Shown piece after piece: positions 13,701 to 54,761 of a stretch of DNA of 64,000 nucleotides. The stretch covers positions 338,347-402,346 of the forward strand of contig OZ244717.1 of the NCBI GenBank assembly GCA_965218975.1. Reading direction: 5' to 3'. The DNA comes from Candidatus Oxydemutatoraceae bacterium. Its GTDB lineage: Bacteria > Pseudomonadota > Gammaproteobacteria > Poriferisulfidales > Oxydemutatoraceae. Within the stretch, counting starts at the first letter, position 1, and each line of letters begins with the position of its first letter. The notes below the pieces were generated by a model. It was given only the letters and a program-made list of their open reading frames with translations, was not told the origin of the DNA and made no database searches. The translations under genes were made by a program, and so were the position numbers.

Positions 13701-15981
13701 CCCGCGTATTCCGTAGCTATATGCTACGGCCTCATTGAAGCTCTACGGTGATCTGACCGAGCACTTCCAACTCAGCGTATTCCGTAGCTATATGCTACGG
13801 CCTCATTGAAGCTACGCAGCGGTACGGCGTCTCGGAGCCGCACACTTGGGTATTCCGTAGCTATATGCTACGGCCTCATTGAAGCGAGGCAGCTTTGTCC
13901 ATTTGCTGGAGCCGCACGCGGTATTCCGTAGCTATATGCTACGGCCTCATTGAAGCCGGTGTAAAATCATCCATCAAAATAACGGTCTTGCTGTATTCCG
14001 TAGCTATATGCTACGGCCTCATTGAAGCTCATTGACTCGGGATATGGACGTCCTCGATTCTTTAGTATTCCGTAGCTATATGCTACGGCCTCATTGAAGC
14101 TATGCAAAAGATACCGAAGAATACAATAATTTGAAGTATTCCGTAGCTATATGCTACGGCCTCATTGAAGCTTTGAAGATCAATATGTATTCAATCGTTA
14201 AGTTGGGGTATTCCGTAGCTATATGCTACGGCCTCATTGAAGCACATTGGATAGTGCTGCGATTGAGCCTTTTATGAGAGGTATTCCGTAGCTATATGCT
14301 ACGGCCTCATTGAAGCCCATTCTCCAAAGCTGCCGCGAGAAACCCGTTCCCGCGTATTCCGTAGCTATATGCTACGGCCTCATTGAAGCCTCACTGCCTT
14401 CGTTTCCTTCCAGCATAATTACAGCGTATTCCGTAGCTATATGCTACGGCCTCATTGAAGCTATATTTTTTTTCTACATCTTCCATGTTTTATCTCCGTA
14501 TTCCGTAGCTATATGCTACGGCCTCATTGAAGCGCGGATGATAATTTGTGCAATTCCCTCATTTGCCTTAAGTATTCCGTAGCTATATGCTACGGCCTCA
14601 TTGAAGCCCGGAAGTTAAAGTCCCCATGTCCGCAGTTAAAGCGGAGTATTCCGTAGCTATATGCTACGGCCTCATTGAAGCGGCTCGGCAATTTCAGTCA
14701 TCAAATCTTTATAACTCGTATTCCGTAGCTATATGCTACGGCCTCATTGAAGCATGATGGTGTTTTAGCACCGTCATGAATGATGTTAAGTATTCCGTAG
14801 CTATATGCTACGGCCTCATTGAAGCTTGTTGCAGTATTTATTTTTATCTCGCTTGTCATGTTGTATTCCGTAGCTATATGCTACGGCCTCATTGAAGCTG
14901 GTAAGCACATTCGACTCAACCATGGCTTTCCTCACGTATTCCGTAGCTATATGCTACGGCCTCATTGAAGCTGTGTGGCGGAATGTCCCTTTTGGGTATA
15001 GTTTATCCGTATTCCGTAGCTATATGCTACGGCCTCATTGAAGCAGCGAAGAAGCCGATGAGGCAGGCGTATATATAGTGTATTCCGTAGCTATATGCTA
15101 CGGCCTCATTGAAGCGACCGCTGTAACTACGACCTGTCACATTACATAATGTATTCCGTAGCTATATGCTACGGCCTCATTGAAGCGGTGCTTTACTCAC
15201 GCATTCAAGGAATCCGGCGCATGTATTCCGTAGCTATATGCTACGGCCTCATTGAAGCAAATCTCCGTTGTTGTGGTGCCGGCAAGAGCGCCGGGTATTC
15301 CGTAGCTATATGCTACGGCCTCATTGAAGCAACCTTTGCATCTGGGGATAAAAAACAGTACTGGAATGTATTCCGTAGCTATATGCTACGGCCTTATTGA
15401 AGCATTGCAAATCATCCATATACGGATAAGGAAACAAAGTATTCCGTAGCTATATGCTACGGCCTCATTGAAGCTTTGGCTTCTATTGTTCTGCGCGGTT
15501 CGGGTACGCATGTATTCCGTAGCTATATGCTACGGCCTCATTGAAGCCCAACTATTTGGTCAACACCTATCAACCCAGAAATAAGTATTCCGTAGCTATA
15601 TGCTACGGCCTCATTGAAGCGACTCAACGCTAATGACGCATACGGCAAAGCCGGATGTATTCCGTAGCTATATGCTACGGCCTCATTGAAGCGGCGTTGG
15701 GTAAATCTCAGCTAGTGCGTAAAGTGCACGTATTCCGTAGCTATATGCTACGGCCTCATTGAAGCGATTTTCTAAGTCAGGAAGCTCCAACCCGCAACAT
15801 AGGTATTCCGTAGCTATATGCTACGGCCTCATTGAAGCAAGCCGCTGTTATATCGAGTGGTCAAGGAGTGAGTGGTATTCCGTAGCTATATGCTACGGCC
15901 TCATTGAAGCTTTTCGTTATTGGGACGCAAGTCATTCCAGGAGACGTATTCCGTAGCTATATGCTACGGCCTCATTGAAGC
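10750..15981 (+). CRISPR. CRISPR array: 73 copies of the 36 bp repeat GTATTCCGTAGCTATATGCTACGGCCTCATTGAAGC and 72 spacers of 35-38 bp
   Basis: I located every repeat start by hand: first at 10750, last at 15946, with periods of 71-74 bp. The repeat has an internal hairpin, CCGTAGC-TATAT-GCTACGG, and ends in ATTGAAGC. One variant repeat at 15368-15403 has C>T at 15395. The leader and cas2 lie at the 5' side. Confidence 0.97.
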
Positions 15982-16905: not shown

Positions 16906-17826
16906 TCAAGCTACCAATTGTTCATAAGTAATCGTCTTCCCAACCATGGCCTTAAAGAGATCATCAAGTCTGTCCTGTGTATCACGTTTCACATTGCCTT
17001 CATTAAGTCTGAATGTAAACTCATTTACATATTGTTGACAATGCTTCTTGCTCCAATTGTGGTAAACACCATTGAAGCCACGTTTAATCACTGACCATAC
17101 AGATTCAACTCCATTAGTATGCGCCATCCCGTTAACATATTCTCTTGCTGAATGTTTTACGCTTTCATGCTGATAATAGTCGCCTCCAATATCTTTATAA
17201 CCCTTGTGGTCATCCGTATAAATGGTGGTACCCACTTCAATGTTAGCAAGAACAGCACTATGAATAGTAGCCTTGTCTTCACCTTCAACTGGCATAGCTT
17301 TTACACGGCCTTCCCGTTCTCTCATACCCAGCACAGCCTGCTTTCCCACAGTACCGCGTCCGGCCTTGAGTTTCTTATGAGAGTGTTTATTCTTTTCAGC
17401 CCTACCAATATAGGTGGCGTCCATTTCCACTTCACCACTCAAGGCTTCAAGATTGTTGCCGCAAGCTAAACGTAGCCTATGCAGCATGTACCAGGCTGTC
17501 GGATAGCTAACGTCCAGTTCCTTGCTTAATTGCATGGCGGAAATACCTTTACGGGCGGTCATAAGCAGATACGCTGCAAATAGCCACATACGGGCATCAC
17601 GCACCCTGTTATGTTCAAGTGGGGTTTCTGTGAAAGCATTGAAATATCCGCGACAATCGCCGCACCAATAACCTTTCTTGTAGTTCTTTTGCTTGGTGAT
17701 TCTGCCGGTACAGCCGCATTTGACACATACAGGCTTAGTTCCCCATCTAAGCTGCTCAAGCTTCGGCAAAAATGTTTTCAAGGGCAATTTCATAATTGGA
17801 CTCTTTTGGCGATAGACCCCGTTCAA
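16906..17826 (-). mobile_element. IS1595-family transposase gene (intact)
   Basis: The N-terminal zinc ribbon is CVKCGC....WCGDCRGYF. The ISXO2-like DDE core is TIYTDDHKGYKDI...HESVKHSAREYVNGMAHTNGVESVWSVIKRG..GVYHNWSKKHCQQYVNEF.FR. The probable start is MKLPLKTF at 17793. I could not define terminal inverted repeats confidently. Confidence 0.8.
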
Positions 17827-18298: not shown

Positions 18299-19201
18299 TC
18301 AATTCTTTCCATCTTCAGCGGCTTTGACTGCATCAACAACGTCATCAGCAAGTCGACGAAGTTCAACATATTCAAGCACTGCTAGTTCTCGAGAACCGCC
18401 GATAAAGCAAATCTCCCGGCATACATCTAGCACTTTGCCGGCAGGCGGCAGTTTGCCGCTACTTTCATTGTCGTCGGGAAGAAATCTTGTGAGACTCGCC
18501 GCCACGGCTTCTTGGACCGAAGCTATTCCAAAAACGGGATTCCTGGATACCATTGCAGATACAAACCATTCCCAGTGGGCTTTTGTTTGCCGAAGTATTT
18601 TTCCTATCCGGTCTTTCGCTATCCCGGATTGTATCTCGGCTCGCCGAACTAGCCGCTCCCGCCACCAAGCTCTCGCAAACGGACAATCAACAAGAACACT
18701 TTTGTTCCCCCGAACATGAGGCAATCCACCCAGTTGGCGTAGAACCGAACGCACGCAGTTGTCCGTTTGCTCTTTTCTTTTAGGGTTCTCGTTGGCCATT
18801 ATCCTGTCAATACGCTCTGCGCCTGTTTGTGATGCGATCCCATTACTTGCGAGGAAACTCGGTTCGATTCGACCTTCCCGAACGTGGCACATAGTGACAT
18901 GAGTCCAAAATAATGTGCTTGAGGCAATCGACAAAGAAAGGTTATTCCAGAGATCGTACATCTTGGATTCAGTGCTAGCTGGGGGATCCTTGAATTGCGC
19001 CTCGCTCATCTTGACCTGATACAGATCGGGATCAATCAAACCAGAAACCGGAATCTGCTCCATAGTTTTGATGAATGCTTCCCCGTCTCTGATCTCTTGA
19101 AGAAATGCCTCTTGTTTTTCGCTACCTTTCTCGCTAAGCAAATTCGCCCGGAATTTGGCCCACTCTTTGTCGTCAAGACATTTCCAATCAAGTTCACTCA
19201 T
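18299..19201 (-). CDS. Hypothetical protein (300 aa), operon partner of the sulfur-modification module
   Basis: An 8 nt overlap with the upstream gene indicates translational coupling. I cannot assign a family. The conserved-looking core is FWTHVTMCHVREGRI ... RQLGGLPHVRGNKSVLVDCPFARAWW. Confidence 0.6.
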   Translation of the reverse strand: MSELDWKCLDDKEWAKFRANLLSEKGSEKQEAFLQEIRDGEAFIKTMEQIPVSGLIDPDLYQVKMSEAQFKDPPASTESKMYDLWNNLSLSIASSTLFWTHVTMCHVREGRIEPSFLASNGIASQTGAERIDRIMANENPKRKEQTDNCVRSVLRQLGGLPHVRGNKSVLVDCPFARAWWRERLVRRAEIQSGIAKDRIGKILRQTKAHWEWFVSAMVSRNPVFGIASVQEAVAASLTRFLPDDNESSGKLPPAGKVLDVCREICFIGGSRELAVLEYVELRRLADDVVDAVKAAEDGKN

Positions 19202-20087
19202 CTTCGTGCCTCAATGGTGGGGGTACATCATGCGGATAAAGCAGCGTTGCAGCCTCCTCAGGTCTGAAATCCGGATCTTCCCAATTACAATTAGTGCAGC
19301 CTTTCGTTTCCAGATCATTGGCAAGCGATTCTAGAGCTTTGTAACTGCACCATCCTTCTTCACTATCTCCGTCGGAATCCTTGTATTTCCGTTGCAGTGC
19401 AGAAAAGCACGAAGTCACGACATGAGTCATAATGTCCTTGCGTTTATCCGAATAGTGCCCTTTGTCTTGAAGAAAAGTATAAAGAGCTGGACCACAATGT
19501 ACTACGAAGCGGAACGTGTCTCCATCAACAGCCTCTGTATAAAATTGGCCTTGCTTTAAGCTTTCGTCCGACCAAATAGAAATGAGTCCTTGAAGACCTG
19601 ATGCCCCAAGATTAAATACCGGCCCCTGCGCAAGCCAAGCACCCTTCGGAAATATTACTTCCAAACCATTCCAGTCGGGATGTACATCATCCTTTTCAGA
19701 ATCCAGAGTACAGAATATTTCCCGGATGCATACAATTACTGGAGTGAAGTACGGAGGCTCACCAAAGTTTGTGTTATTCCAAGCAATTTCCTGGGTCGGA
19801 TCTTGAGAACACTGAAGTTCCCGATACGCCGAGCGAGGCGCGGCCAAAGAACAAGCATACCGGGCATGTTTTTGCGCAATCAGTCGCTCGACCAGACGGG
19901 CACCCGTCACCGAATGCGTTAGCAAGAAGCGGCTTTTGTCGGAACTAAACCTATGTTGAACCTGACTATGTTGAACCTGATAATTGCCATTCGGGAAGGC
20001 ATCATTGCCTTCCTCAATTGCCGGATAATTACGCGCCAGAATCGCGTTCGCCCCGGGGGCGCTCTTGGCGTTGATGTCGGTATTCAT
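19194..20087 (-). CDS. Hypothetical protein (297 aa), operon partner of the sulfur-modification module
   Basis: There is a 4 nt start/stop overlap with the GHKL ATPase gene. No recognisable catalytic motif was seen. Confidence 0.6.
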   Translation of the reverse strand: MNTDINAKSAPGANAILARNYPAIEEGNDAFPNGNYQVQHSQVQHRFSSDKSRFLLTHSVTGARLVERLIAQKHARYACSLAAPRSAYRELQCSQDPTQEIAWNNTNFGEPPYFTPVIVCIREIFCTLDSEKDDVHPDWNGLEVIFPKGAWLAQGPVFNLGASGLQGLISIWSDESLKQGQFYTEAVDGDTFRFVVHCGPALYTFLQDKGHYSDKRKDIMTHVVTSCFSALQRKYKDSDGDSEEGWCSYKALESLANDLETKGCTNCNWEDPDFRPEEAATLLYPHDVPPPLRHEDE

Positions 20088-22051
20088 TCTGAAGTGCTTA
20101 TGGTGGGCTTAGTATCATCGGAGGGTCTCTTGCCAATCTCCACTCGGAGACTTGCTCCGGATTGGATAGGGACACCATCGGCTGCCAGTTTATATTCGGC
20201 CTCTACTTCGGTCGTAGTATTCTTTCCAAGATTGCCCAGCAAAATAGCAGGATAGGGTTTGGTAATTATTCTATCCGGCTGAATCGTTTTTCCATTGACC
20301 TTCGCCGCGGTGATTGCGGCAACACGATCAGTCCATATACGCTCAGTCGTTACATCCGAATGATCATCAACAACGAGACGGAGTTCCAGATCTTCACAAG
20401 GCTCAATGCAATGGATCCGGATTTTCCGGCGATTTGAAGCCGATGGAGTAACAACGATCTTAAAATATTGCGGCAAGGTCGGCCTTTCCCGAGAGCCGCT
20501 CCGGCTACTTTGCCGTCTTTTCCCGGTATTCTTGCTTCGGCCCTTGTTCCTGCCACCTGTCGTTCCCCCGGGCCCTGTTTCATGTGGTCGCCGTGAGGAT
20601 ATCCGTCTCTTAATCAGCGCGATTGTGCCCTGATATTCCCGACCGGCTTTTTTTCCTTGTCGGCTTCCGGCGGTGCTATCAGGGAAGACCAAGAAGTCGT
20701 CAGGGCTATACTCGTCAGAAGTAAGTTTTGGTATTACCTCTTCGATTTTCTTTTTAATCACATTAAATGCCTGACGTAGCTGCTTCCAGTCCTCGTTGCT
20801 GATAGCCTTCTTATCAAGCCGATTGTGTAGAGGCCCCTCAGCTTTTCCAATAAGATCGTGGAACCGGCGGGGCGCGCTCTTTGCGGAAACCAGAACCAAA
20901 CCTTCAAAGGCCTCATAGTCTGCAAAGTTAAAACCGGGAATGTTGCCGGTAATCCACATACCGTTCCTGCAAAGATTTACTCGCGTTCGCCCTGAAGGCG
21001 CCGGATGCTGAACGAAAAGTCTTACCGAGCCATCCAGGACCTCAACTTCATGGCGATAACCTCCTCGGTAGGCTTGATAGGCAAAAAATGCCTGTTCGCC
21101 CGGGAGATAGTCCTTTTTCCGTTTTTGTTCCCGATATTTCTCCAGAACAGTCTGCAACTGCTCACTCGTAAGTTCCCGCTGGGGCTTATTGCCCTCGCCT
21201 TCAATAACCACCTCGAGCTGCCCATCAGCTATTGCGACAAAAAAACTACAGGCAATAGCCTCCGGTACGGTATCAGATAGAAAATCCTTATCCTTACTAC
21301 GAAAACGGTTGAATGCAGGAACGATAACGGCAGTCCCATGTCCGGAATCCTTCTCAATATCCGCCAAAGCGTTTTTAATCAATATCGGAAGGTCATTTCC
21401 CCACGGGTATATGTATTCTCTTTTTTTGCGATCAACCAAGTAATAACCGTTAGCGCTCCGCCCTGTGTCGTCGCTCTGGTTAGCATAATGGGATGCGAGA
21501 ATTGCGTGGCCGCTTGCAATCCGTTTCCCGTTGCAAATACCACCGTAGAGTACATACCTGAGATCTGAGGCGGGAAATAACGAAAAATGCCCAACGCCGA
21601 AGGTACCGGACGCTCCACTTTCCTTGCGACTTCTGCCGTCCGACAATAATGCCGTCATTCTGTCTTTGTCGAGGCCAATACCATTGTCCGAAACAATAAG
21701 TGCCTGCTGCCAATCTTGTGATAGCGCTTCAGAGATTCTGTCAGCCACAATTTGCTCCTGATCATTGAGCGAACCGTTGTTTTCCTCCTCACGCCTTTTC
21801 ACTGCTTTCTTAAAAGCGGATTTATAACTCTCAATTCCAGGTATATCTTCGGTTTTTACCTCCGTAGTAGAAAAACGTACTATAGCCCTAGCCTCACGAA
21901 CCCCAGTGTAATGGAGGGCGGCGGCGGCATCCAGAGAATTTTGGATCAGCTCGCGCACAATTGCGAACGAACTCATCTCTCGGAAGCTGCTAATGCTAGC
22001 AGCCGTAAATCCGTAAGAGTCACTCGATTTGAAAAAATAAAGATCTGTCAT
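20084..22051 (-). CDS. GHKL-superfamily (sacsin/Hsp90-like, HATPase_c_3-type) ATPase with a basic low-complexity linker
   Basis: Bergerat-fold motifs are present: N-box FAIVRELIQNSLDA, G1 box VSDNGIGL and G2 box GASGTFGVGHFS. The C-terminal third contains an R/K/S/G-rich stretch (RNKGRSKNTGKRRQSSRSGSRER). A 4 nt overlap with the desulfurase gene stop indicates coupling. Confidence 0.75.
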   Translation of the reverse strand: MTDLYFFKSSDSYGFTAASISSFREMSSFAIVRELIQNSLDAAAALHYTGVREARAIVRFSTTEVKTEDIPGIESYKSAFKKAVKRREEENNGSLNDQEQIVADRISEALSQDWQQALIVSDNGIGLDKDRMTALLSDGRSRKESGASGTFGVGHFSLFPASDLRYVLYGGICNGKRIASGHAILASHYANQSDDTGRSANGYYLVDRKKREYIYPWGNDLPILIKNALADIEKDSGHGTAVIVPAFNRFRSKDKDFLSDTVPEAIACSFFVAIADGQLEVVIEGEGNKPQRELTSEQLQTVLEKYREQKRKKDYLPGEQAFFAYQAYRGGYRHEVEVLDGSVRLFVQHPAPSGRTRVNLCRNGMWITGNIPGFNFADYEAFEGLVLVSAKSAPRRFHDLIGKAEGPLHNRLDKKAISNEDWKQLRQAFNVIKKKIEEVIPKLTSDEYSPDDFLVFPDSTAGSRQGKKAGREYQGTIALIKRRISSRRPHETGPGGTTGGRNKGRSKNTGKRRQSSRSGSRERPTLPQYFKIVVTPSASNRRKIRIHCIEPCEDLELRLVVDDHSDVTTERIWTDRVAAITAAKVNGKTIQPDRIITKPYPAILLGNLGKNTTTEVEAEYKLAADGVPIQSGASLRVEIGKRPSDDTKPTISTSE

Positions 22052-23202
22052 GCTACTGCTACTCCTTCACCAAACTGCCGTTCAAACGCAAGAGCGGCAA
22101 GCATAATATCCTCCTCTGTGGTAAACCGGCCTAGGCTAATACGGACCGCCTGAAGCGCCGACAAAGGCGGTTGTCCGAGGGCCGTTAAAACATGAGACGG
22201 TTCAACCCCTCGTGACGAACAGGCAGAACCCGTTGAAATCGCCACGCTCCCTTCAAGCCCGGCAATTACTTCATCTCCGGATATCCCCGGAAACGACACA
22301 TTTAAACTTCCCGGTACACGTTGATATTTGTGCCCGTTCAGTTGAAGCCCTGGCGCGCTTTTCTGCAGTAACTGCCATAGCCGGGAAGTCAGTTTCCTGA
22401 TACGTAACGAATCCTTTTCTGTCTCATTCAACGCAATTTCACATGCCGCACCAAAGCCAACAACGAGATGTACGGGCAAGGTGCCGGGACGTAAGCCGCG
22501 CTCCTGACCACCTCCTGTAGCAACCGGCCCGATGCGATCAAAAGTATCGTTGTGGACATAGAGGACCCCAATCCCCATCGGGCCATATACTTTGTGCGAG
22601 GATAACGACAACAGGTCGATTCCAAGCGAATCGACATCAATTCCTATTTTTCCGGCGGCTTGGGTTGCATCCGTATGCATTAACGCACCATGCTCATGGG
22701 CAATCGACGCAATCTCGGCAACCGGATGAACAACTCCAATTTCGTTATTAACCAGCATAGCGGATACTATCGCAGTCTTATCGCTGATCGCATCTTGCAT
22801 TTCGTCCATATCCATAATGCCGTCCGGATTCACCCCGATCTTGCGGATAGGAACTCCATCCAAACCCAATGCTCGAACTGTTTCCAAAACTGCCGGGTGC
22901 TCGGTAGCTACAGTAATAATCTCGTTACGGCCAGTGCTTCTCTTGATCGTGCCTCGAAGCGCAATGTTGCAGGATTCCGTTGCGCCGGAAGCAAAAATAA
23001 TTTCTTGGTCGTCTGCGCCTAACAGGGCAGCTACCTGAGCACGACCTTCAGCTACGGCCCGCGCCGCATTCCATCCATAGGCATGATGGATTGCATGGGG
23101 ATTCCCAAAACGCTCTTGCAGAAAAGGCTGCATGGCATCTCGAACCCGGGGGTCAAGCGGAGTGGTGGCCTGGTAGTCCAGATACACCGGTGCAGAAGCC
23201 AT
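22048..23202 (-). CDS. Cysteine desulfurase (NifS/IscS/DndA class, PLP-dependent)
   Basis: VYLDYQATTPLDPRV is at the N-terminus. The PLP-lysine motif is SSHKVYGPMGIGVLYV and the active-site cysteine loop is STGSACSS. The probable start is the ATG at 23202 (MASAPVYLDY), 4 nt after the upstream stop; the listed ORF extends to 23274. Confidence 0.9.
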   Translation of the reverse strand: MASAPVYLDYQATTPLDPRVRDAMQPFLQERFGNPHAIHHAYGWNAARAVAEGRAQVAALLGADDQEIIFASGATESCNIALRGTIKRSTGRNEIITVATEHPAVLETVRALGLDGVPIRKIGVNPDGIMDMDEMQDAISDKTAIVSAMLVNNEIGVVHPVAEIASIAHEHGALMHTDATQAAGKIGIDVDSLGIDLLSLSSHKVYGPMGIGVLYVHNDTFDRIGPVATGGGQERGLRPGTLPVHLVVGFGAACEIALNETEKDSLRIRKLTSRLWQLLQKSAPGLQLNGHKYQRVPGSLNVSFPGISGDEVIAGLEGSVAISTGSACSSRGVEPSHVLTALGQPPLSALQAVRISLGRFTTEEDIMLAALAFERQFGEGVAVA

Positions 23203-23206
23203 ATGT

Positions 23207-24568
23207 TTAGTCAGTGCAATCACATGGCAACATGGCCTTGGTTTCAGTGAGCGCTTGGACTCCGCGGTCCGCAATGTTTCGGTAAGTCATCTTGCTGTTC
23301 GTTCCAAAGAAACCGACTGTACCGTCAATGCCTCGTTGTTCTGCTGTCAAATCCCGAGTGTAGGTATCCTCTATACGAGCCCACCAAGCGACATCCATCG
23401 GTGTGTTCTGCTGACTGTTAGGTAAATCTGCCTCGCATTCCGAATGAATACTCTCATAAACCTTAGTCAGGTTTGATGTTCCCTTGAGAAAACAGTAAAC
23501 ACAATTGGACAGATGCCCGGTCGCGGGGAGTTTCAATTCAAAATCCTTGTTTTTCCGCCAGAATGCCTTAACGTCTTCTTTTTTTACACACATGTCTGAA
23601 AGCGGCATATAGACATGTTCTCCTTCATACTCCCGAACCTCAGAACTGCCCGAGATTCTCGCTTCGACACGTTGCACACGTGCCTCTTCATCTCCCCTCA
23701 ACCCGATAAAAGCGACATATTGCACTCCACCCTCGCCAAATACAGCATTCCCCCCATACGCTTTCCCATCCAAGAGCTTACTGTCCATGGCGTCTGATGC
23801 TGTCGAAAAATCCTTATAACGTTGCTCCGGACGACATACCGGCTGTGACATCACAAATTTCTTCTTGGCCAGAAAAATATCTCTTGGGACCCCGCCATTA
23901 TTGCGACGGTGGCGTTGATAAAGCGTTTCCTCATCAACCTGGGGCTTATTCTCCCAATGGCCAAGACGAGGAATGATTTTTTTGCAGGCCAGCCAGTCGC
24001 GCAGAAACATTCGTGTTGTCTCAAGTTTCAGAGTTGCTGTGCAGGTCCGGCGGAACTGGTTGGGAACATACCCTGACCACGACAACATCTCCTCAAAGAC
24101 CTCGCCCCTCCAGCAGTAACCATCCGGGTTATTTTCCGAACGAGGCTTGGCATTCACTAGCCGATAGGAAGGCAAACGAGTCCAGTCGCCGTTGCGCACA
24201 TCTTCATAGGTTTGATACTCGATCAGAAAAAATGGAATTCCGTAGCAAGATTCTGCTCGTTTCTTGCATTGGGCTACAAAGTCATAGGTGGCCGGATGTT
24301 CGGCAGCAGTATTGTTAAAGAGTATGACATCACCGCGCTCGGCCTTTAGTACACGGTTTTCCAGCAGAGTAAACAAAAGCATTCCGCTGGATCGACCGCC
24401 GGAGAATTTGACAACGTGAGGAAAATTCTCGTGCCTTTTAGACCGATATCGAAACTGATACTCGAACTCCGGATCGTATTTTTTTGGTTTGCGAAGGCGT
24501 TTCGAAACTACTAGCTTGGGAATTCCTTTTACAGAATGTTTAACAAGATTTTCTACAACGGTCTGCAT
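23207..24568 (-). CDS. PAPS-reductase-fold PP-loop ATP pyrophosphatase (DndC/SspD-like class)
   Basis: The PP-loop is VVKFSGGRSSGMLLF, followed by LFNNTAAEHPATYDF, the CysH/PAPS_reduct pattern SGGxxS...NT..E.P.T..F. C-terminal cysteines are NCVYCFLKG and a terminal LPCDCTD. The gene sits directly upstream of a cysteine desulfurase. Confidence 0.75.
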   Translation of the reverse strand: MQTVVENLVKHSVKGIPKLVVSKRLRKPKKYDPEFEYQFRYRSKRHENFPHVVKFSGGRSSGMLLFTLLENRVLKAERGDVILFNNTAAEHPATYDFVAQCKKRAESCYGIPFFLIEYQTYEDVRNGDWTRLPSYRLVNAKPRSENNPDGYCWRGEVFEEMLSWSGYVPNQFRRTCTATLKLETTRMFLRDWLACKKIIPRLGHWENKPQVDEETLYQRHRRNNGGVPRDIFLAKKKFVMSQPVCRPEQRYKDFSTASDAMDSKLLDGKAYGGNAVFGEGGVQYVAFIGLRGDEEARVQRVEARISGSSEVREYEGEHVYMPLSDMCVKKEDVKAFWRKNKDFELKLPATGHLSNCVYCFLKGTSNLTKVYESIHSECEADLPNSQQNTPMDVAWWARIEDTYTRDLTAEQRGIDGTVGFFGTNSKMTYRNIADRGVQALTETKAMLPCDCTD

Positions 24569-26560: not shown

Positions 26561-27040
26561 GTTTTGTGTTTGGTGGCAGATTGTCGGCGGATTGTGCCGG
26601 ATTATTGGTGGATTGTTGGTAGGTTGTGCCGGATTATTAGCAAAGTGCATGTCGTCCATGACGCGACTGGGTTCTGTCAACAAGCCCCAGCCCCGACATC
26701 CTTGTCGGGTCGTTCGCCGCTGAAAACCGTTCGGTTTTCCGGGCGCGGCTTACCCATGACGCGACTGGGTTCTGTCAACAAGCCCCAGCCCCGACATCCT
26801 TGTCGGGTCGTTCGCCGCTGAAAACCGATCGGTTTTCCGGGCGCGGCTTACCCATGACGAGACTGGGTTCTGTCAACAAGCCCCAGCCCCGACATCCCTG
26901 TCGGGTCGTTCGCCGCTGAAAACCGTTCGGTTTTCCGGGCGCGTCTCACCCGACAACGGACAGAAAGCACCGATCCGAATGTTGCTGCCGAATGCTTCCC
27001 CGGAAGCCCTTCAAGAATCCCATTTAGGGTGGCATCGTAC
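26561..27040 (+). repeat. Mosaic intergenic repeat cluster, copy 1: G/T-rich head, three ~97 bp units, conserved tail
   Basis: The head (26561-26657) has GGATTGT/GGATTAT motifs every 9-12 bp. Units start at 26658, 26755 and 26853. Each contains the hairpins CCCGACA-TCCT-TGTCGGG and GAAAACCG-TT-CGGTTTTC. The tail AAAGCACCGATCCGAATGTT...CCCATTTAGGGTGGCATCGTAC runs 26964-27040. Confidence 0.9.
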
Positions 27041-27166
27041 ATTCTTGACAAGCCCGCCGCTTTCCCCTAACCTGAGCTTAAGTTACGAGGCGCAGGCCTT
27101 ATTCTTTACTCGCCCGCGGGGAGGATCCTCGCGGGGACCTTCCAGCGGTAACAACAGGAGACTATT

Positions 27167-27376
27167 ATGGAAATTACTGCTGAGAAATTTGAGCAGGAGC
27201 TTCAAAAGCTTGAACAGAGGCTTGAGCGAAAGTTTGATACGAAGCTTGATACGAAGTTTGATAAGCTCGAAGCCAAACTCGACTCGGTGAAGACTTGGTT
27301 TGTCGGTTTAATGGTCACTACCGTTTTAGTCGTGACCGCGTTGATGACAACATTCGTCAACATTAACATGAACTAA
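27167..27376 (+). CDS. Small coiled-coil protein with a C-terminal transmembrane anchor (69 aa; DUF1640-like pattern by recollection)
   Basis: An AGGAG RBS lies 7-8 nt upstream. A heptad-like region, EQELQKLEQRLERKFDTKLDTKFDKLEAKLDS, is followed by the hydrophobic helix WFVGLMVTTVLVVTALMTTFV. The gene is flanked on both sides by the mosaic repeat clusters. Confidence 0.6.
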   Translation: MEITAEKFEQELQKLEQRLERKFDTKLDTKFDKLEAKLDSVKTWFVGLMVTTVLVVTALMTTFVNINMN

Positions 27377-27487
27377 CCCGGGCATCACCGCCTATTCTTA
27401 AAACTTGGTTTCGCGTCTGCTCGCGAAATCCTACTCTAAATTGATGATACAAACCATGGGTTTTTATCCTTAGCCTGCCTATCAGCA

Positions 27488-27851
27488 TCGTTCGCCGCTG
27501 AAAACCGTTCGGTTTTCCGGGCGCGGCTCACCTGTTTTGTGTTTGGTGGTAGATTGTCGGCGGATTGTGCCGGGTTGTTGGTGGATTGTTGGTAGGTTGT
27601 GCCGGATTATTAGCAAAGTGCATGTCGTCCATGACGAGACTTCGTGCTGTTAATGAACCCCAGCCCCGACATCCTTGTCGGGTCGTTCGCCGCCCGCTAA
27701 AAAAGGTGGCACCGTTCGGTTTTCCGGGGCGCGGCTCACCCATGACGAGACTTGGTTCTGTCAATGAGCCCCAGCCCCGACATCCCTGTCGGGTCGTTCG
27801 CCGCTGAAAACCCCGCTGAAAACCGTTCAGTTTTCCGGGCGCAGCTCACCC
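27488..27851 (+). repeat. Mosaic intergenic repeat cluster, copy 2: partial unit, head, two units, no tail
   Basis: The family and orientation match 26561-27040. The head sequence TGTTTTGTGTTTGGTGGTAGATTGTCGGCGGATTGTGCCGGGTTGTTGG... is followed by CATGACGAGACTT...CCCCGACATCCTTGTCGGG...TTCGGTTTTCCGGG units. Confidence 0.9.
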
Positions 27852-28044
27852 TGCGGCGTCAGGGTGGGCCTTATCCGCACGTAGCGGTCAACCGTATATA
27901 GCGTCAGGCATGCGAGCCGAAATCGGACAGCGCCGGCAACCGATATATCCTCGCATCCCGGTAACATTGCCTGCGCGGACCGCGCAGCTCATTGGGTTAC
28001 AATACCCCGTAGCTAAAAATAAAAAAGGTCTGACTGACAACTAC

Positions 28045-29661
28045 ATGTTTTACCTAGATACGACAACGCCTTTATTTCAAGACAAAGAGAATCAAGACCT
28101 GATTACCATATATCAGGCGAGTGTTTGGATATCAAAGCACCTAAACAAAGAAGTAACCTCCTCCAATATCTCGTATCTAATCCAATACGGAAGGATTGCC
28201 AAATATTCGGAGAACGGGACAACCGCGGTCAGTAAAAACGAGCTGGTCAATTACTATAAAGGCTTTCTTCAGGACCGGGAAAGTGTTTGGAAGAATAAGC
28301 TCGGGGACGACCTAAACTGGAATCTTTCATTCGACTTCCTCAGAGAGAAAGACACAACGAAGCATGTGCATCGATTTCATCCCTACAAGGGGAAGTTTAT
28401 CCCTCAATTAGTTGAGTATTTCTTGGATGGCCACACGGATGAGTTTAAAAAAGAGGCCTTTTTCCAAACCGGGGATATTGTTTTAGACCCGTTCTGCGGC
28501 AGCGGAACAACGCTGGTGCAAGCAAACGAACTCGGAATGCACGCCGTCGGCGTTGACATTTCAGCTTTCAATACTTTGATTGCCAACGTAAAAATAGCGA
28601 AGTATGACCTCAACGAGCTGCGCAACGAACTGAGATGCATAGGCCTTTTACTTCGGCGGAAAACATACGATTCTCCGAATATTGAGTTTGAAAGAGAATT
28701 GTCGGAAGCGTTAAACGTCTTTAATAAAAACAACTTTCCGACACCGGATTTCAAAAGAAAGCTTCGGGTAAAGGAAATAGATGAAAAAACTTATGCCTGC
28801 GAAAAAGAGAAGGAATTTATGCCTGCTTATGACAAATTGGTTAAGAGGCATCGTATTCAAATTAAGCAGACTAAAACCGGCCGTTTTACGGACAAGTGGT
28901 TTTTGAGGCCCGTAAAGGATGAGATAGAGTTGTTGCTCAAACAAATCAGGGAAGTCAAGAATGAGCGCATCAGAAAAATCTTGGAAATCGTTTTAAGCAG
29001 AACCGTTCGGTCGTGCCGAGCTACGACCCATGCCGACCTGGCCACCTTGAAAGAGCCCGTAACAAAACCGTATTACTGCAAAAAACACGGCAAGATTTGC
29101 AAGCCCTTGTTTTCTGTCCGGTCGTGGTGGAAGAGATACGGTGAGGACACTTTAATCAGGATTCAGGCATTTAATACTCTGCGCACTGAAACCAAACAAA
29201 TCTGCCTGCAGGGAGATTCGAGAACAATAAACTTGATTGATCGCCTGCCGGGGAAAGAGAAGCGCCTTGCGGGACTTATAAAAAGCAAAGGAATAAACGG
29301 CATATTTACCAGTCCTCCTTATGTCGGACTGATTGACTACCACGAACAGCACGCCTACGCATACGACCTATTTGGCTACAAAAGAAACGACCGGCTTGAA
29401 ATAGGCCCCCTGTCCGAAGGGCAAGGCGCTATAGCAAGACAAACTTACTCGGAGTCAATTGCCGAAGTGCTACGAAATTGCAGAAAATACCTTGCGAAGG
29501 ACTTTAATGTTTTTCTTGTCGCGAATGATAAATACAACTTGTATCCATCAATCGCCAAACTTGCCGATATGCGCATAGCGAATACGTATAAGCGACCGGT
29601 TCTTAACCGAACGGAAAGGGATAAAGGGGCTTATTCGGAGATGATATTTCACTTGAAATAA
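28045..29661 (+). CDS. DNA methyltransferase, N4-cytosine/N6-adenine type (SPPY), alpha-class motif order
   Basis: Motif I, LDPFCGSGTTLVQA, lies ~270 aa upstream of motif IV, FTSPPYVGLIDY. The probable start is the ATG at 28045 (MFYLDTTTPLF); the listed ORF starts at 27910 in GC-rich repeat-flanking sequence. The gene is AT-rich. Confidence 0.8.
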   Translation: MFYLDTTTPLFQDKENQDLITIYQASVWISKHLNKEVTSSNISYLIQYGRIAKYSENGTTAVSKNELVNYYKGFLQDRESVWKNKLGDDLNWNLSFDFLREKDTTKHVHRFHPYKGKFIPQLVEYFLDGHTDEFKKEAFFQTGDIVLDPFCGSGTTLVQANELGMHAVGVDISAFNTLIANVKIAKYDLNELRNELRCIGLLLRRKTYDSPNIEFERELSEALNVFNKNNFPTPDFKRKLRVKEIDEKTYACEKEKEFMPAYDKLVKRHRIQIKQTKTGRFTDKWFLRPVKDEIELLLKQIREVKNERIRKILEIVLSRTVRSCRATTHADLATLKEPVTKPYYCKKHGKICKPLFSVRSWWKRYGEDTLIRIQAFNTLRTETKQICLQGDSRTINLIDRLPGKEKRLAGLIKSKGINGIFTSPPYVGLIDYHEQHAYAYDLFGYKRNDRLEIGPLSEGQGAIARQTYSESIAEVLRNCRKYLAKDFNVFLVANDKYNLYPSIAKLADMRIANTYKRPVLNRTERDKGAYSEMIFHLK

Positions 29662-30455: not shown

Positions 30456-30701
30456 AAAGGCCAAACCAAAGCGGCCTTGCGGGTAGCCGCCGAAGAATAT
30501 CCCGCATACCCGGGATACACCGCCGCTTAGTCCATCATGCTAGGAAAGTGCGCATAAGGCAAAAATTGCCATTCAAAGATTGCATGGGGCTGTCATAATT
30601 TACACACTTGATGTCGCGCGGGTGTCCTCCGCGGGATTGATCCGACCGCGAGGCAAAGTCAGGCTCCTGCGGGAGCTTCAAAGCAGCCGAGACACAACGG
30701 A

Positions 30702-31295
30702 TCAGCAATTCTTAAAGTTCTTCTTAATACATTCGCGAGCAAGGTCTTGCGCTTTAGAGATATCGGCAGAGGTCATTTTTTTTGCCATCGTCTCTCTTAA
30801 TTTTCTTCCGTCCTCAGCCCCGTTTGCGGAAGCGATGTTCGCCCACATATGGGCATAAACATTATCCTTTATTAACCCCCGACCTAAAGCATACATCAAA
30901 CCCAGATTATTTTGCGCGGACGCATGTCTCTGTCCGGCGGCGAGCCTGTACCATTTCACTGCCTCGCGATAATCTTGAGGAACACCGTCTCCGTTGCGAT
31001 ACATCACACCCAGACTGTGCTGCGCGTCCGCATGTCCCTGTTCGGCGGCGAGCCTGTACCATTTCACTGCTTGCCGACCGTCTTGAGGAACACCGTGTCC
31101 GTTGTCATACATCACACCCAGATTGTACTGCGCGGACGCATGTCCCTGTTCGGCGAGAGGCATCCACTTTTGCAGGGCGGTCGCAAAGTCTCGTTTTAGA
31201 GCGACATCCAACCCTTTCTGAAAATCAGCAGAATAGGCAAACGACCCGAATAAGAGTGCGAACAGTAAAATAGAAATGATAGACAGAGTTCTCAT
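30702..31295 (-). CDS. Sel1-repeat (TPR-like) protein with signal peptide
   Basis: The N-terminal hydrophobic leader is MRTLSIISILLFALLFGSFAYSA. It is followed by Sel1 units of the form AQ.NLG.MY.NG.GVPQD...AVKWYRLAAEQGHA.AQ. Confidence 0.85.
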   Translation of the reverse strand: MRTLSIISILLFALLFGSFAYSADFQKGLDVALKRDFATALQKWMPLAEQGHASAQYNLGVMYDNGHGVPQDGRQAVKWYRLAAEQGHADAQHSLGVMYRNGDGVPQDYREAVKWYRLAAGQRHASAQNNLGLMYALGRGLIKDNVYAHMWANIASANGAEDGRKLRETMAKKMTSADISKAQDLARECIKKNFKNC

Positions 31296-31456
31296 CCTTG
31301 GATTGTAATCCGAATAATGTTAACGGCGAAAAGATTGTATGGAGCCGCTGTAGTTTACACACTCGGTGTTGCGCGGGTGTCCTCTGCGGGATTGACCCGC
31401 CCGCGAGGCAAAGTCAGGCTCCTGCGGGAGCTTCAAAGCAGCCGAGACACAACGGG

Positions 31457-32374
31457 TCAACAATTCTCAAAGTTCTTTACGATGCATTCGCGAGCAAGGT
31501 CTTGCGCTTTGGAGATATCGGCAGGGATCATTTGTTCCGCCATTATCTCTTTTAATTTTTCGCCGCTTTCATCGCCGTTGATGGAGCCGATGCTTCCCCA
31601 CATATAAGCATAAATATTATCTTTTGATAACCCTTTACCCAGAGCGTACATCAGGCCAAGTTTGGTCTGTGCTCTCGCATCCCCCTGTTCGGCAGCGAGT
31701 TGGTACCACTTTACCGCTTGCCGATTATCTTGGGGAATGCCGTCTCCGTTATAGTACATTGATGCAATATTGTACTGTGCCTTTGCATGCCCCTGTTCGG
31801 CGGCAAGTTGGTACCACTTTGCTGCTTGCCGACTGTCTTGAGAAATGCCGTCGCCGTTGTGATACATCACTGCCAGATTGGTCTGTGCGGTAACTCGTCC
31901 CTGTTCGGCGGCTAACCTGTACCATTTCACTGCTTGTCGACTGTCTTGAGGAATGCCGTCGCCGTTGTCGTACATCAACGCCAGATTAGTCTGTGCTAGC
32001 CCTTCTCCTTGTTCAGCAGCTCGCTCGTACCACCTCATCGCCTCGCGATAATCTTGAGGAACACCGTCGCCGTTGTAGTACATCCATGCCAGATTGGTCT
32101 GCGCTTTTACGTCTCCTTGTTCGGCGGCGAGCCTGTACCATTTCACTGCTTGCCGATCGTCTTGAGGAACGCCGTCGCCGTTGTCGTACATCACGCCCAG
32201 ATTGCACTGAGCCCTTGCATCTCCCTGCTCGGCGAGAGGCATCCACTCTTGCAGGGCGGTCGCAAAGTCTCGTTTTAGAGCGGCATCCAACCCTTTCTGA
32301 AAATCAGCGGAGTAAGCGGACACACCAAACAGGAGCGTATGCAGTAAAACAGAAACGACAAACAGAGATTTCAT
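31457..32374 (-). CDS. Sel1-repeat (TPR-like) protein with signal peptide, longer paralog
   Basis: The leader and Sel1 unit consensus match 30702-31295, with about seven units. The N-terminal 40 aa are nearly identical to the neighbouring paralog. Confidence 0.85.
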   Translation of the reverse strand: MKSLFVVSVLLHTLLFGVSAYSADFQKGLDAALKRDFATALQEWMPLAEQGDARAQCNLGVMYDNGDGVPQDDRQAVKWYRLAAEQGDVKAQTNLAWMYYNGDGVPQDYREAMRWYERAAEQGEGLAQTNLALMYDNGDGIPQDSRQAVKWYRLAAEQGRVTAQTNLAVMYHNGDGISQDSRQAAKWYQLAAEQGHAKAQYNIASMYYNGDGIPQDNRQAVKWYQLAAEQGDARAQTKLGLMYALGKGLSKDNIYAYMWGSIGSINGDESGEKLKEIMAEQMIPADISKAQDLARECIVKNFENC

Positions 32375-41006: not shown

Positions 41007-41070
41007 ATTGAACAAGTGAAAACAGGATTTATTAGTTTAAGGTAATTGCTTAATTTTTTATATATTTTGC

Positions 41071-41144
41071 ACGATGCCACCCTAAATGGGATTCTTGAAT
41101 AGCTTCGGGGGAAGCGTTCGGCAGAAAGCACCGATCCGAATGTT
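41071..41144 (+). repeat. Solo fragment of the mosaic-repeat tail: the arm is inverted relative to loci 26964-27040 and 52470-52546, and the core is in the same orientation
   Basis: ACGATGCCACCCTAAATGGGATTCTTGAA..GCTTCGGGGGAAGCGTTCGGCAG is the reverse complement of the tail arm. It is followed by the shared core AAAGCACCGATCCGAATGTT. Confidence 0.85.
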
Positions 41145-41162: not shown

Positions 41163-41191
41163 TTGACATGCTGTTGTAAAGTCAATATACT
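41163..41191 (+). promoter_or_regulatory. Sigma70-type promoter (TTGACA, 17 nt spacer, TATACT) upstream of the lipoprotein gene
   Basis: A perfect -35 lies at 41163-41168 and a near-consensus -10 at 41186-41191 with exactly 17 nt between them. The element is 85 nt upstream of the ATG at 41277. Confidence 0.6.
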
Positions 41192-51810: not shown

Positions 51811-51911
51811 AAGGGTTATATACCTGACTTCGCGTACCGCCGGCGTCGGCGGATCTGGCCGCAGGCGATCCGCCATAGAATCAAACGCCTGCGTCGGGTG
51901 AATCTCGGTAG

Positions 51912-52745: not shown

Positions 52746-54761
52746 ATGAAACTATTAATTCGAACGGCTACTCTTTTAATGGCCTTTGCTTTTATTCTCA
52801 CCTCGACAACGCAAGCGCAAAACGCCCCGGCGGATCAAGCGGAGTTCGAGAGGCTGGTTGCAGGTATGCAGATAGAGGCTGCTGTTGGTAGCACCATGAC
52901 CACACTGCAATTCCCGAATCCAGGGCGTATCCTAGAAATTAGTGAAGAAGGAAACTTCCTTGGTAATTATCAGTACACAAATACCGGCGACAATACGGGA
53001 ATGCTCACTTACACCTACGACGCGAGCGGTAACAATGCGGCTATGGAGCAAACCGAGGGTACACTCACGTTCACTTCGGCGACAATGGGAACATTCGAGA
53101 GTACCTATTTCTATGTCACAGCGAGCGAACCCCGTGTGATGAGCAGTGGCACATTTGAAATCGTCGACGCCGAACCTCCAGCTGTGTTTGCCCCACTGGA
53201 TCAAGCGGAGTTCGAGAGGCTGGTTGCAGGTATGCAGATAGAGGGGATTGATGCTCGCGGCAGCATGGGCACACTGCAATTCCCGAATCCAGGGCGTATC
53301 CTGGAAATTGTGGAAGAAGGAAACTTCTTTGGTGATTATCAGTACACAAATACCGGCGACAATACGGGAATGCTCACTTACACCTACGACGCGAGCGGTA
53401 ACAATGCGGCTATGGAGCAAACCGAGGGTACACTCACGTTCACTTCGGCGACAATGGGAACATTCGAGAGTACCTATTTCTATGTCACAGCGAGCGAACC
53501 CCGTGTGATGAGCAGTGGCACATTTGAAATCGTCGACGCCGAACCTCCAGCTGTGTTTGCCCCACTGGATCAAGCGGAGTTCGAGAGGCTGGTTGCAGGT
53601 ATGCAGATAGAGGCTGCTGTTGGTAGCACCATGACCACACTGCGATTCCCGGACTCGGGCCGTATCCTAGAAATTAGTGAAGAAGGAAACTTCCTTGGTA
53701 ATTATCAGTACACAAATACCGGCGACAATACGGGAATGCTCACTTACACCTACGACGCGAGCGGTAACAATGCGGCTATGGAGCAAACCGAGGGTACACT
53801 CACGTTCACTTCGGCGACAATGGGAACATTCGAGAGTACCTATTTCTATGTCACAGCGAGCGAACCCCGTGTGATGAGCAGTGGCACATTTGAAATCGTC
53901 GACGCCGAACCTCCAGCTGGGTTCGCCCCGCAGGATCAAGCGGAGTTCGAGAGGCTGGTTGCAGGTATGCAGATAGAGGGGATTGATGCTCGCGGCAGCA
54001 TGGGCACACTGCAATTCCCGAATCCAGGGCGTATCCTGGAAATTGAAGAAGAAGGAATCTTCCTTGGTAATTATCAGTACACAAATACCGGCGGCAATAC
54101 GGGAATGCTCACTTACACCTACGACGCGACCGGTAACAATGCGGCTATGGAGCAAACCGAGACTATACTCACGTTCACTTCGGCGACAATGGGAACATTC
54201 GAGAGTACCTATTTCTATGTTGAAGCAAGCGAAACCCCCGAGGTGAACACAGGTACATTTGAAATCGTTGCTGCTCCGGTCGCCCCGGCGACTCAAGCGG
54301 AGTTCGAGAGGCTGGTTACAGGTATGCAGATAGAGGCTGCTGTTGGTAGCACCATGACCACACTGCGATTCCCGGACTCGGGCCGTATCCTAGAAATTAG
54401 TGAAGAAGGAAACTTCCTTGGTAATTATCAGTACACAAATACTACCGCCGTTTCCACCAGTGTAGGAAGCCTCACTTACACCTACGACGCGAGCGGTAAC
54501 GATCCGGCTATGGAGTACGTCACGGTCAACCTCGTGTTCACTTCGGCGACAATGGGAGCATTCGAGAGTACCTATTTCTATGTTGAAGCAAGCGAACCCC
54601 GTGTGATGAGCAGTGGCACATTTGAAATCGTCCCTATTCCTGGTAGCAGCGGTGGCGGTGGCGGCAGCGGCAGCGCGGGTTTGTGGCTGTTATTGCTACT
54701 GCTTGCATCAGTTGTCGGCAATCGCTGTGCTCCTGTCATTTTTCGGACCGGATCATCCTAG
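52746..54761 (+). CDS. Secreted tandem-repeat protein (five ~122 aa repeats) with a glycine-rich plus hydrophobic C-terminal sorting-like tail
   Basis: The signal peptide is MKLLIRTATLLMAFAFILTSTTQA. Repeat starts (DQAEFERLVAGMQIE) lie at nt 52833, 53199, 53568, 53934 and 54291. The C-terminus is GSSGGGGGSGSAGLWLLLLLLASVVGNR..., which looks GlyGly-CTERM-like. Confidence 0.85.
   Translation: MKLLIRTATLLMAFAFILTSTTQAQNAPADQAEFERLVAGMQIEAAVGSTMTTLQFPNPGRILEISEEGNFLGNYQYTNTGDNTGMLTYTYDASGNNAAMEQTEGTLTFTSATMGTFESTYFYVTASEPRVMSSGTFEIVDAEPPAVFAPLDQAEFERLVAGMQIEGIDARGSMGTLQFPNPGRILEIVEEGNFFGDYQYTNTGDNTGMLTYTYDASGNNAAMEQTEGTLTFTSATMGTFESTYFYVTASEPRVMSSGTFEIVDAEPPAVFAPLDQAEFERLVAGMQIEAAVGSTMTTLRFPDSGRILEISEEGNFLGNYQYTNTGDNTGMLTYTYDASGNNAAMEQTEGTLTFTSATMGTFESTYFYVTASEPRVMSSGTFEIVDAEPPAGFAPQDQAEFERLVAGMQIEGIDARGSMGTLQFPNPGRILEIEEEGIFLGNYQYTNTGGNTGMLTYTYDATGNNAAMEQTETILTFTSATMGTFESTYFYVEASETPEVNTGTFEIVAAPVAPATQAEFERLVTGMQIEAAVGSTMTTLRFPDSGRILEISEEGNFLGNYQYTNTTAVSTSVGSLTYTYDASGNDPAMEYVTVNLVFTSATMGAFESTYFYVEASEPRVMSSGTFEIVPIPGSSGGGGGSGSAGLWLLLLLLASVVGNRCAPVIFRTGSS

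Follow-up and report, generated by a model that had tools for sequence, protein, structure and literature searches.

We analyzed a window of 64,000 nt from contig OZ244717.1 (assembly GCA_965218975.1, positions 338,347-402,346 of the forward strand) of Candidatus Oxydemutatoraceae bacterium, in which a family of interspersed repeats forms four clusters. These are located at positions 26561-27041, 27488-27850, 51908-52547 and 54856-55118 of the window (clusters 1 to 4), all on the + strand. The clusters range in size from ~260 to ~640 bp and are situated between the end of one gene and the promoter-like site of the next. An initial annotation, prepared from the letters of the sequence, had described four co-oriented clusters of modular build that are G+C-rich relative to their surroundings, and all four were recovered where it had placed them, with a G+C content of 57-59% vs 48% for the window. 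It had overlooked a tail-related piece at positions 41068-41144, the partial repeat unit with which cluster 2 begins and the extension of the family beyond the window.

The clusters are assembled from modules H, A, B and T, which are joined head to tail, always on one strand, and each of which varies in copy number. Module H is a G/T-rich head consisting of the leader GTTTTGTGTTTGG, a run of 0-6 heptamers of the GGATTGT type per copy spaced at steps of 9-12 bp, and the constant segment GCAAAGTGC(A/C)TGTCGTC. Module A is 30 bp long (CATGACGMGACT...GTCAAYRAGCC). Module B, of 67-68 bp, is composed of CCAG, hairpin 1 (CCCGACA-TCCT-TGTCGGG), TCGTTCGCCGCT, hairpin 2 (GAAAACC-NNNN-GGTTTTC) and CGGGCGCGKCTCACC; both hairpins have a 7-bp stem and a 4-nt loop. 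Module T, the tail, measures 91 bp. The general grammar across the four clusters can be written as H-(A-B)1-3-(B)0-1-(T).

Cluster 1 (H-AB-AB-AB-T) comprises a head with the leader, six heptamers 9-12 bp apart and the constant segment GCAAAGTGCATGTCGTC (26561..26656), three tandem 98-bp A-B units, each with hairpins 1 and 2 (26657-26754, 26755-26852 and 26853-26950), and a tail made up of the stub CGGACAG, a 20-nt 'loop' AAAGCACCGATCCGAATGTT and a 58-nt arm ending in GGGTGGCATCGTACA (26951..27041). Cluster 2, (3' 45 nt of B)-H-AB-AB, starts with the partial B (27488-27532), which is followed by a head (27533-27629) and two A-B units (27630-27740 and 27741-27850). A separate hairpin, CACCCTG-N6-CAGGGTG, incorporates the final bases of the B unit with which this cluster closes. 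Cluster 3, H-AB-(8 nt of head end)AB-H-AB-B-T, carries two heads. Its first part consists of a five-heptamer head (51908-51996), an A-B unit (51997-52094) and a further A-B unit preceded by 8 nt of head end (52095-52200, giving a 106-bp period), and its second part of a rearranged head (52201-52291), an A-B unit (52292-52389), an extra B (52389-52456, 67-bp period) and the tail (52457-52547). Cluster 4 (H-AB-B) is composed of a rearranged head (54856-54953), an A-B unit (54954-55051) and an identical extra B (55051-55118). In total, nhmmer profiles recovered 11 full and 1 truncated B modules, 9 A, 5 H and 2 T modules in the window, all on the + strand, and relaxed thresholds yielded no further or degenerate copies in the 64 kb. 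The 37-nt core of B occurs 10 times with up to 3 mismatches, and 100 shuffles of the sequence produced 0 such matches; thus, the clusters are real and far beyond chance.

The tandem arrangement differs from one array to another. Tandem Repeats Finder (TRF) reported a 98-bp unit present in 3.0 copies in cluster 1 (26656-26951, 96% matches), and periods of 111 bp (27629-27851), 106 bp (51988-52201) and 67 bp (52322-52457 and 54984-55119) in the other arrays. The ~97-bp tandem unit proposed in the initial annotation is therefore present, as the 98-bp unit of cluster 1, but is only one of four periods (98, 106, 111 and 67 bp), the breakpoints of which differ and fall at CC(C) junctions. Every B ends in ...CACC, and the module that follows always begins with C, namely, CATGACG for A, CAGCCCC for B, CGTTTTGTG for H and CGACAACGG for T. 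Adjacent units are identical in cluster 3 (c3.1 and c3.2) and in cluster 4 (c4.1 and c4.2), and in cluster 1, c1.1 and c1.2 differ by 1 nt. On a larger scale, the head of cluster 1 is most similar to that of cluster 2 and vice versa (93% identity over 160 nt), and the same holds for the second part of cluster 3 and cluster 4 (52227-52457 and 54889-55119, 92% over 231 nt). The conserved tail attributed to two clusters is indeed common to clusters 1 and 3 (93% over 160 nt).

Both hairpins were found as described, hairpin 2 with GTTC as the loop (GAAAACC-GTTC-GGTTTTC), and 96% of cells are paired across copies. The loop of hairpin 2 occurs in the forms GTTC, GATC and AGTA in the window, and at least 2 more forms were inferred from open reading frames (ORFs) outside it; a loop variant of hairpin 1, TCCC, is also present. 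In cluster 2, hairpin 2 is broken within the 5' arm in both A-B units, by a replacement or insertion of 13 nt in one and by a 12-nt duplication in the other. The destruction of hairpin 2 by these indels indicates that this copy is not under strong constraint.

The heptamers are less regular than they had appeared. The motif GGATTRT occurs 35 times in the window vs 18 +/- 4 expected, and its spacings within heads are 10, 11 and 21 bp in cluster 1, 21 and 21 bp in cluster 2, and 10, 11 and 11 bp in cluster 3, the gaps being occupied by near-copies (AGATTGT, GGTTGT); TRF assigns periods of 11, 21 and 32 to the run. The reported spacing of 9-12 bp held. The reported count of 5-6 motifs per head holds for three of the five heads and fails for the second head of cluster 3, which has one exact motif, and for the head of cluster 4, which has none. 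Counted as heptamers of the GGATTGT type, the five heads of the window carry 6, 6, 5, ~4 and ~3.

The tail and the piece at 41 kb represent two halves of a 57-20-57 palindrome of ~134 bp. In the latter, a 57-60-nt tail arm lies inverted (41068-41127) and is followed by the 20-nt 'loop' AAAGCACCGATCCGAATGTT in direct orientation (41122-41144). Each tail locus retains one arm plus the loop, and there is no complete palindrome in the window. An invertible switch at the tail was also considered and was dropped; the half-palindrome reading fits better because the inverted-repeat stubs are not kept at 41 kb. The ends of the IS1595 elements, tried as a source of the tail, display no similarity to it.

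Promoter-like sites directly follow several of these elements: TTGACA-17 nt-TAACCT beyond the tail of cluster 1 (27045-27073, recognized by eye), TTGGCA-17-TATATT 3' of cluster 3 (52553-52581), CTTACA-17-TATGAT abutting cluster 4 (55119-55147) and TTGACA-17-TATACT 3' of the 41-kb piece (41163-41191), the last leading into a lipoprotein gene. The layout [H-(AB)n-T]-promoter-gene-[H-(AB)n] was found twice. Clusters 1 and 2 enclose a gene for a 69-aa ORF with a coiled coil and a C-terminal membrane helix (27167..27376, + strand), and the second part of cluster 3 and cluster 4 enclose a gene for a 671-aa protein (52746..54761, + strand) that has a signal peptide and is made up of a 369-bp (123-aa) repeat in 4.9 tandem copies (88% identity). 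The direct repeats bracketing the two genes are ~160-230 bp long and 92-93% identical. The genes located 3' of a tail or tail piece (n=3) encode the coiled-coil/membrane-helix protein, the lipoprotein and the signal-peptide repeat protein. Three of the four clusters are preceded by a gene of the same orientation, and arrays also adjoin restriction-modification genes.

To assess how far the family reaches, the translations of spurious ORFs that cross the repeats were searched against 5.8 billion protein clusters and 1.84 billion representatives. They match eleven distinct ORFs (P0124, P0125 and P0127-P0135), all from the same 2.081-Mb contig and none identical to an ORF of the window, from which at least 9 further loci on this contig were inferred. 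There were no matches from other sources apart from a weak, low-complexity insect protein (P0126), which we take to be spurious. Nine of the eleven outside ORFs begin in an additional module, U, of ~170 bp (translation MNTTAQQKYDALLFWEGCNSRTHSRSVAVLCTAG...), which precedes the head, A and B modules in at least 9 outside copies. In the window, U is represented only by a trace of ~21 nt (GCCGGCGTCGGCGGATCTGGCCGC, 51838..51862, + strand), and no convincing alignment to it was obtained upstream of cluster 1; U has no relatives in any other genome or metagenome searched. The outside heads contain 5 heptamers (P0128), 1 (P0133) or none (P0127 with four cluster-mates, and P0134), and in the outside copies hairpin 2 carries additional loop sequences on preserved stems.

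The nucleotide searches agree with this confinement to a single contig. The B core, as an exact pattern, has 0 matches in one genome each from 185,579 species. A looser pattern produced 6 chance matches in the species genomes, three of which were read (L002, L005 and L006): two are in coding sequence and one is a lone hairpin. At positions 698-767 of L005, from a metagenome-assembled genome of Eubacteriales, two hairpins of the GAAAACC-N4-GGTTTTC type lie 40 bp apart, the first resembling the B unit in 31 of 36 nt; we judge this a chance resemblance. The B core and tail core were absent from metagenome contigs and viral contigs contained nothing similar, blastn against plasmids, phages and E. 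coli genomes returned no match, and the four module sequences do not occur in the full text of papers. The nearest relatives identified by YaaA (L007 and L008, 73% and 66% identity) show no trace of the repeat. Thus, the family is present at 13 or more loci of one genome and in no other genome of the collections searched. An E. coli REP-like appearance of the cluster 2 flank (GCCTTATCCG) did not hold up either: in exact form it occurs once in the window, and a BLAST search of E. coli genomes gave no match. Short motifs in the manner of DNA uptake sequences were likewise rejected, all over-represented k-mers being restricted to the clusters.

The clusters are non-coding, as previously proposed. 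The spurious ORFs have no Pfam match, and none of the tandem periods of 67, 98 and 106 bp is divisible by 3. The suggested comparison with Rfam and covariation analysis were carried out. Across the whole window, the CRISPR (clustered regularly interspaced short palindromic repeats) repeats alone pass the Rfam gathering threshold, and the best matches within the clusters score 12-24 bits (E >=0.045) vs thresholds of 33-100 bits; the two hairpins show zero compensatory changes. Compared with shuffles, the head and tail fold no better on either strand, and the z-scores are -1.7 (+ strand) and -3.05 (- strand) for the A-B unit and -1.9 (+ strand) and -4.4 (- strand) for cluster 1. No evidence of a structured RNA was found.

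Three specific functions were considered along with these tests. An intrinsic terminator is a G+C-rich stem-loop followed directly by a U-tract. Hairpin 2, which had been taken for one, has its T-run in the 3' arm of the stem, continues with CGGGCG and is not called by a consensus scan, so that this assignment is abandoned; hairpin 1 continues with TCGTTC, has no U-tract and is equally negative in the scan. Iteron origins possess a rep gene and an A+T-rich unwinding region, are present once or a few times per replicon and have a fixed number of iterons. Here, there are five heads in 64 kb plus more outside, with 0-6 heptamers, and neither a rep gene beside the clusters nor an A+T-rich origin region nearby was found, which speaks against an iteron-type origin. 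The phasing is the single feature in favor of the proposed iteron or protein-binding array. On the - strand, hairpin 1 reads CCCGACA-AGGA-UGUCGGG, which presents what we take to be a CsrA-type site (ACARGGAUGU) with GGA in the loop. A CsrA sponge was rejected, given that neither strand contains more GGA than its composition predicts and CsrB/RsmX/Y/Z have no Rfam match in the clusters at E<10.

Among described repeats, the closest in layout are the BOX elements, which are boxA-boxBn-boxC composites of 67-637 bp found in pneumococcus and S. suis and in which the number of boxB modules differs between strains, a variation attributed to slippage or unequal crossover (PMC3049150). The grammar in the window has the same organization, with a 5' module, variable tandem internal modules and a 3' module; the hairpin-forming units, the similar size range and the spurious ORFs across large arrays are further points in common. 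However, BOX elements have been reported with terminal inverted repeats (TIRs) and target duplications (PMC3049150), whereas here the start of the head and the reverse complement of the tail end agree at 7 of 40 positions, so that there is no TIR, and no direct repeats indicative of target-site duplication were seen at the cluster borders. Identity with a miniature inverted-repeat transposable element (MITE) was rejected on both counts. The host also differs, a streptococcus vs a gammaproteobacterium, and the window elements are G+C-rich relative to their genome; the comparison with BOX is one of layout.

Neisserial intergenic mosaic elements (NIMEs) consist of dRS3 20-mers (ATTCCCN8GGGAAT) and more than 100 RS families, and NIME arrays flank surface-protein genes, the exchange of which they are thought to promote (PMC1797815). 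Similarly, the arrays studied here are long, non-coding and built of multiple repeats, lie near surface-protein genes and variable restriction-modification loci, bracket genes in pairs and are dynamic in length. Neither strand of the window contains the dRS3 pattern, and a few fixed modules in fixed order and single orientation take the place of RS families between inverted 20-mers.

Repetitive extragenic palindromic (REP) sequences are imperfect palindromes of 20-40 bp with an unpaired GTAG or CGTC tag at one end (PMC3733652). In bacterial interspersed mosaic elements (BIMEs), REPs alternate in orientation within a mosaic (PMC2817692), and head-tail dimers are rare in REP families (PMC2817692, PMC3733652). 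Short G+C-rich hairpins, extragenic clusters and mosaic linkers are common to REP/BIME and to our family, and protection of mRNA 3' ends has been proposed for both. By contrast, the units in the window are all head to tail and have 7-bp stems, and no GTAG or CGTC tag is present in any copy, hairpin 1 being flanked by cccagc/tcgttc and hairpin 2 by gccgct/cgggcg. Genomes with such repeats carry a gene for a cognate REP-associated tyrosine transposase (RAYT), usually with REPs on its flanks. A Pfam scan of 50 ORFs of the window detected no RAYT or other Y1 transposase, and tblastn with approximate queries was negative. Identity with REP/BIME was rejected on the basis of the missing tag and the uniform orientation, with no RAYT among the scanned ORFs of the window. 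The initial annotation had called the clusters BIME-like in logic though not in sequence and not assignable to a known element, a description with which the Rfam, genome, metagenome, viral, plasmid and phage searches agree; it had also named a match to a REP or MITE family as grounds for abandoning its view, and the defining features of both are absent.

Integron attC sites have RYYYAAC...GTTRRRY core sites 40-130 nt apart and are accompanied by the integrase IntI. On both strands the clusters are free of paired attC core sites, and the scanned ORFs of the window include no integrase. The clusters are no CRISPR array, in which unique spacers of similar length alternate with short identical repeats: their units abut without spacers, and the true array of the window has a different repeat. 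Correia elements often sit upstream of genes, and the tail and the 41-kb piece, as halves of a ~134-bp palindrome each just upstream of a promoter-like site, recall these and the enterobacterial repetitive intergenic consensus (ERIC) elements, but the window holds no full palindrome and there is no sequence similarity. Mycobacterial interspersed repetitive units (MIRUs), which provide variable number of tandem repeats (VNTR) loci, are tandem 50-110 bp units co-oriented with the flanking genes and having a locus-specific copy number. The unit length, the gene co-orientation and the copy number per locus are shared with the clusters, but the units in the window carry distinct head and tail modules, and periods of 67, 98 and 106 bp are unsuited to translational coupling. 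In Halothiobacillus neapolitanus, a 41-bp palindrome, GGGaaGCTT-GAAAaACC...GGTaTTTCgAAGC-gCCC, has been reported around the CGTC-1 repeats (PMC3733652); judging from the published description, it bears a faint likeness to hairpin 2 and to the tail hairpin GCTTC..GAAGC.

With a confidence slightly better than even, we interpret the family as a non-coding mosaic repeat, interspersed and specific to its lineage, that is of one kind with BOX, NIME and BIME elements but appears unrelated to them in sequence. The identity of neighboring units, the differing periods and the decay of cluster 2 argue for a mosaic repeat that grows by local duplication. The arrays would gain and lose units in situ, through slipped-strand mispairing or unequal crossing-over where modules meet at short C-rich junctions, and the heptamer run of the head may be a slippage-prone minisatellite with a 10-11-bp (21- or 32-bp) period. 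Whole arrays might be copied to nearby intergenic sites via recombination or with the help of an enzyme. The effect on the host would be mostly passive, insofar as stable hairpins in read-through transcripts can slow 3' exonucleases. Because the bracketed genes for exported and membrane proteins are flanked by ~160-230-bp direct repeats, they would be prone to deletion, duplication or exchange by homologous recombination, in line with the arguments made for NIME arrays beside surface-protein genes (PMC1797815) and for the variable number of boxB modules (PMC3049150).

Several observations sit uneasily with this interpretation. At least 7 U-A-B copies, the translations of which are 82-97% identical, look like the product of recent proliferation, which hints at active mobility. 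Passive recombination on its own would not lead one to expect every module to have the same orientation at all four loci. The two 7-bp stems hardly vary while the loop of hairpin 2 does, a combination suggestive of constrained stems or half-sites and so of a partner specific for structure or sequence. Local duplication, the effect on RNA and the consequence for recombination are inferences.

One alternative is that the arrays are cis sites of active recombination or transposition, where an HUH/RAYT-like or other recombinase would act on the B hairpins and cut at ...CACC|C, or where genes would be exchanged in a NIME- or integron-like manner. Such activity fits the single-strand orientation, the invariant stems with free loops, the position of all junctions after ...CACC and the near-identical U-A-B copies elsewhere in the genome, as well as the twofold bracketing of a gene (the membrane-protein ORF and the secreted-protein gene) and the placement of the clusters in a defence/variable region beside restriction-modification genes and an IS1595 remnant. 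Yet, apart from IS1595, the 50 Pfam-scanned ORFs of the window include no Y1/HUH transposase, integrase or recombinase, and tblastn with the approximate queries found none; GTAG/CGTC tags, attC cores, dRS3, TIRs and target duplications are all missing; the flanking direct repeats are merely 92-93% identical; and the differing tandem periods resemble slippage, not precise cut-and-paste. We consider this explanation unlikely. A more specific version, in which an undescribed recombination system with its enzyme encoded elsewhere recognizes the B hairpins on one strand, joins modules at ...CACC|C and swaps exported-protein genes, in the way of integrons or NIMEs but without attC or dRS3, is in our view clearly less probable again. 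About as doubtful is an array acting at the level of DNA, in which the phased heptamers would bind a regulator or an architectural, partition-type protein and the 18-bp palindromes would serve as operators, so that the downstream promoter is controlled or insulated. The mean heptamer step of ~10.6 bp (range 9-12 bp) would align the motifs along one side of the helix, the palindromes keep their half-sites while the 4-bp center varies, clusters 1, 3 and 4 and the 41-kb piece each have a promoter-like site immediately beyond their 3' end, and the three tail-linked downstream genes all encode exported or membrane proteins. Against this, the heptamers number from 0 to 6, with none in the heads of P0127, its cluster-mates and P0134, the distance from head to promoter shifts by hundreds of bp with the number of units, the palindromes of cluster 2 are broken, and no cognate regulator gene is adjacent.

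A role in RNA, either as + strand stabilizers or attenuators in 3' untranslated regions or as a - strand RNA that titrates CsrA/RsmA, appears a little less probable still. It draws on the - strand folds of the A-B unit and of cluster 1, which are better than those of shuffles (z = -3.05 and -4.4), on the TCCC variant of the hairpin 1 loop, which still yields R-GGA on the - strand, and on the location of 3 of the 4 clusters downstream of co-oriented genes. The absence of GGA enrichment and of CsrB/RsmX/Y/Z in Rfam at E<10 weighs against such a role, as do the lack of a promoter-like site or GacA box on the - strand and of a U-tract terminator on either strand, the lack of covariation, and the terminator-like hairpins of their own that the upstream genes possess, by eye, ahead of clusters 3 and 4. 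An assembly artefact, produced by collapsed or chimeric repeats, is extremely improbable: tandem repeats are error-prone in short-read assemblies, but the copies differ in a structured way, each has unique flanks on a 2.08-Mb contig, and the same modules with variants of their own recur at the eleven other ORF loci on that contig.

Mosaic repeats private to one lineage are common among bacteria, and a function has rarely been established for them. What is new here is the family itself; the kind of bacterial repeat to which we assign it is already familiar. For the lineage, the arrays provide ready-made VNTR markers, and the eleven spurious 'proteins' that the family has already contributed to public databases illustrate a pitfall for annotation. 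If the bracketing layout reflects recombination, the family could explain reshuffling of the variable region. A cognate enzyme, if found, would make the invariant stems, free loops and strict orientation the hallmarks of a new hairpin-recognizing mobile or recombination system, and either such an enzyme or a demonstrated exchange of genes between arrays would raise the interest of the family.

The surrounding genes mark the window as a variable/defence region. A complete type I-G (I-U) CRISPR-Cas locus (48-15981, + strand) encodes csb2, cas3, GSU0053, GSU0054, a cas4-cas1 fusion and cas2 and includes an array of 73 repeats of 36 nt (10750-15981; Rfam CRISPR-DR16). It is followed by an IS1595-family transposase gene (16906-17826, - strand), a decayed copy of which (25782-~26315, - strand; 79% over 210 nt, frame broken) ends ~250 bp from the start of cluster 1. 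Between the two, the segment 19194-24568 (- strand) contains an SspA/DndA-like cysteine desulfurase gene (22048-23274), matches to both components of the PADLOC candidate PDC-M33 (A, 20084-22051; B, 19194-20087) and a weakly SspD/BrxP-like ORF; together these possibly form a DNA-modification defence module. The window also holds a type II methyltransferase with a TdeIII endonuclease and a type III-like res/mod pair with a DUF488 gene. In the ORF called from position 27910 (27910-29661), the type II methyltransferase profile begins at residue 60; the true start is probably near 28046, which would leave ~195 bp of partly G+C-rich non-coding sequence after cluster 2 (27851-28045).

Duplications of other kinds are found in the window as well. 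Two adjoining Sel1-repeat genes made of 108-bp tandem repeats occupy 30575-32374 (- strand), and within them a 300-nt segment is duplicated at 83% (30575-30874 and 31330-31629). The 3'-terminal ~130 nt of the gene for the type III res-like helicase recur 1.58 kb downstream (47137-47268 and 48716-48848, 85-95% identity), and the C-terminus of the encoded helicase has a weak match to a TnsA-like endonuclease.

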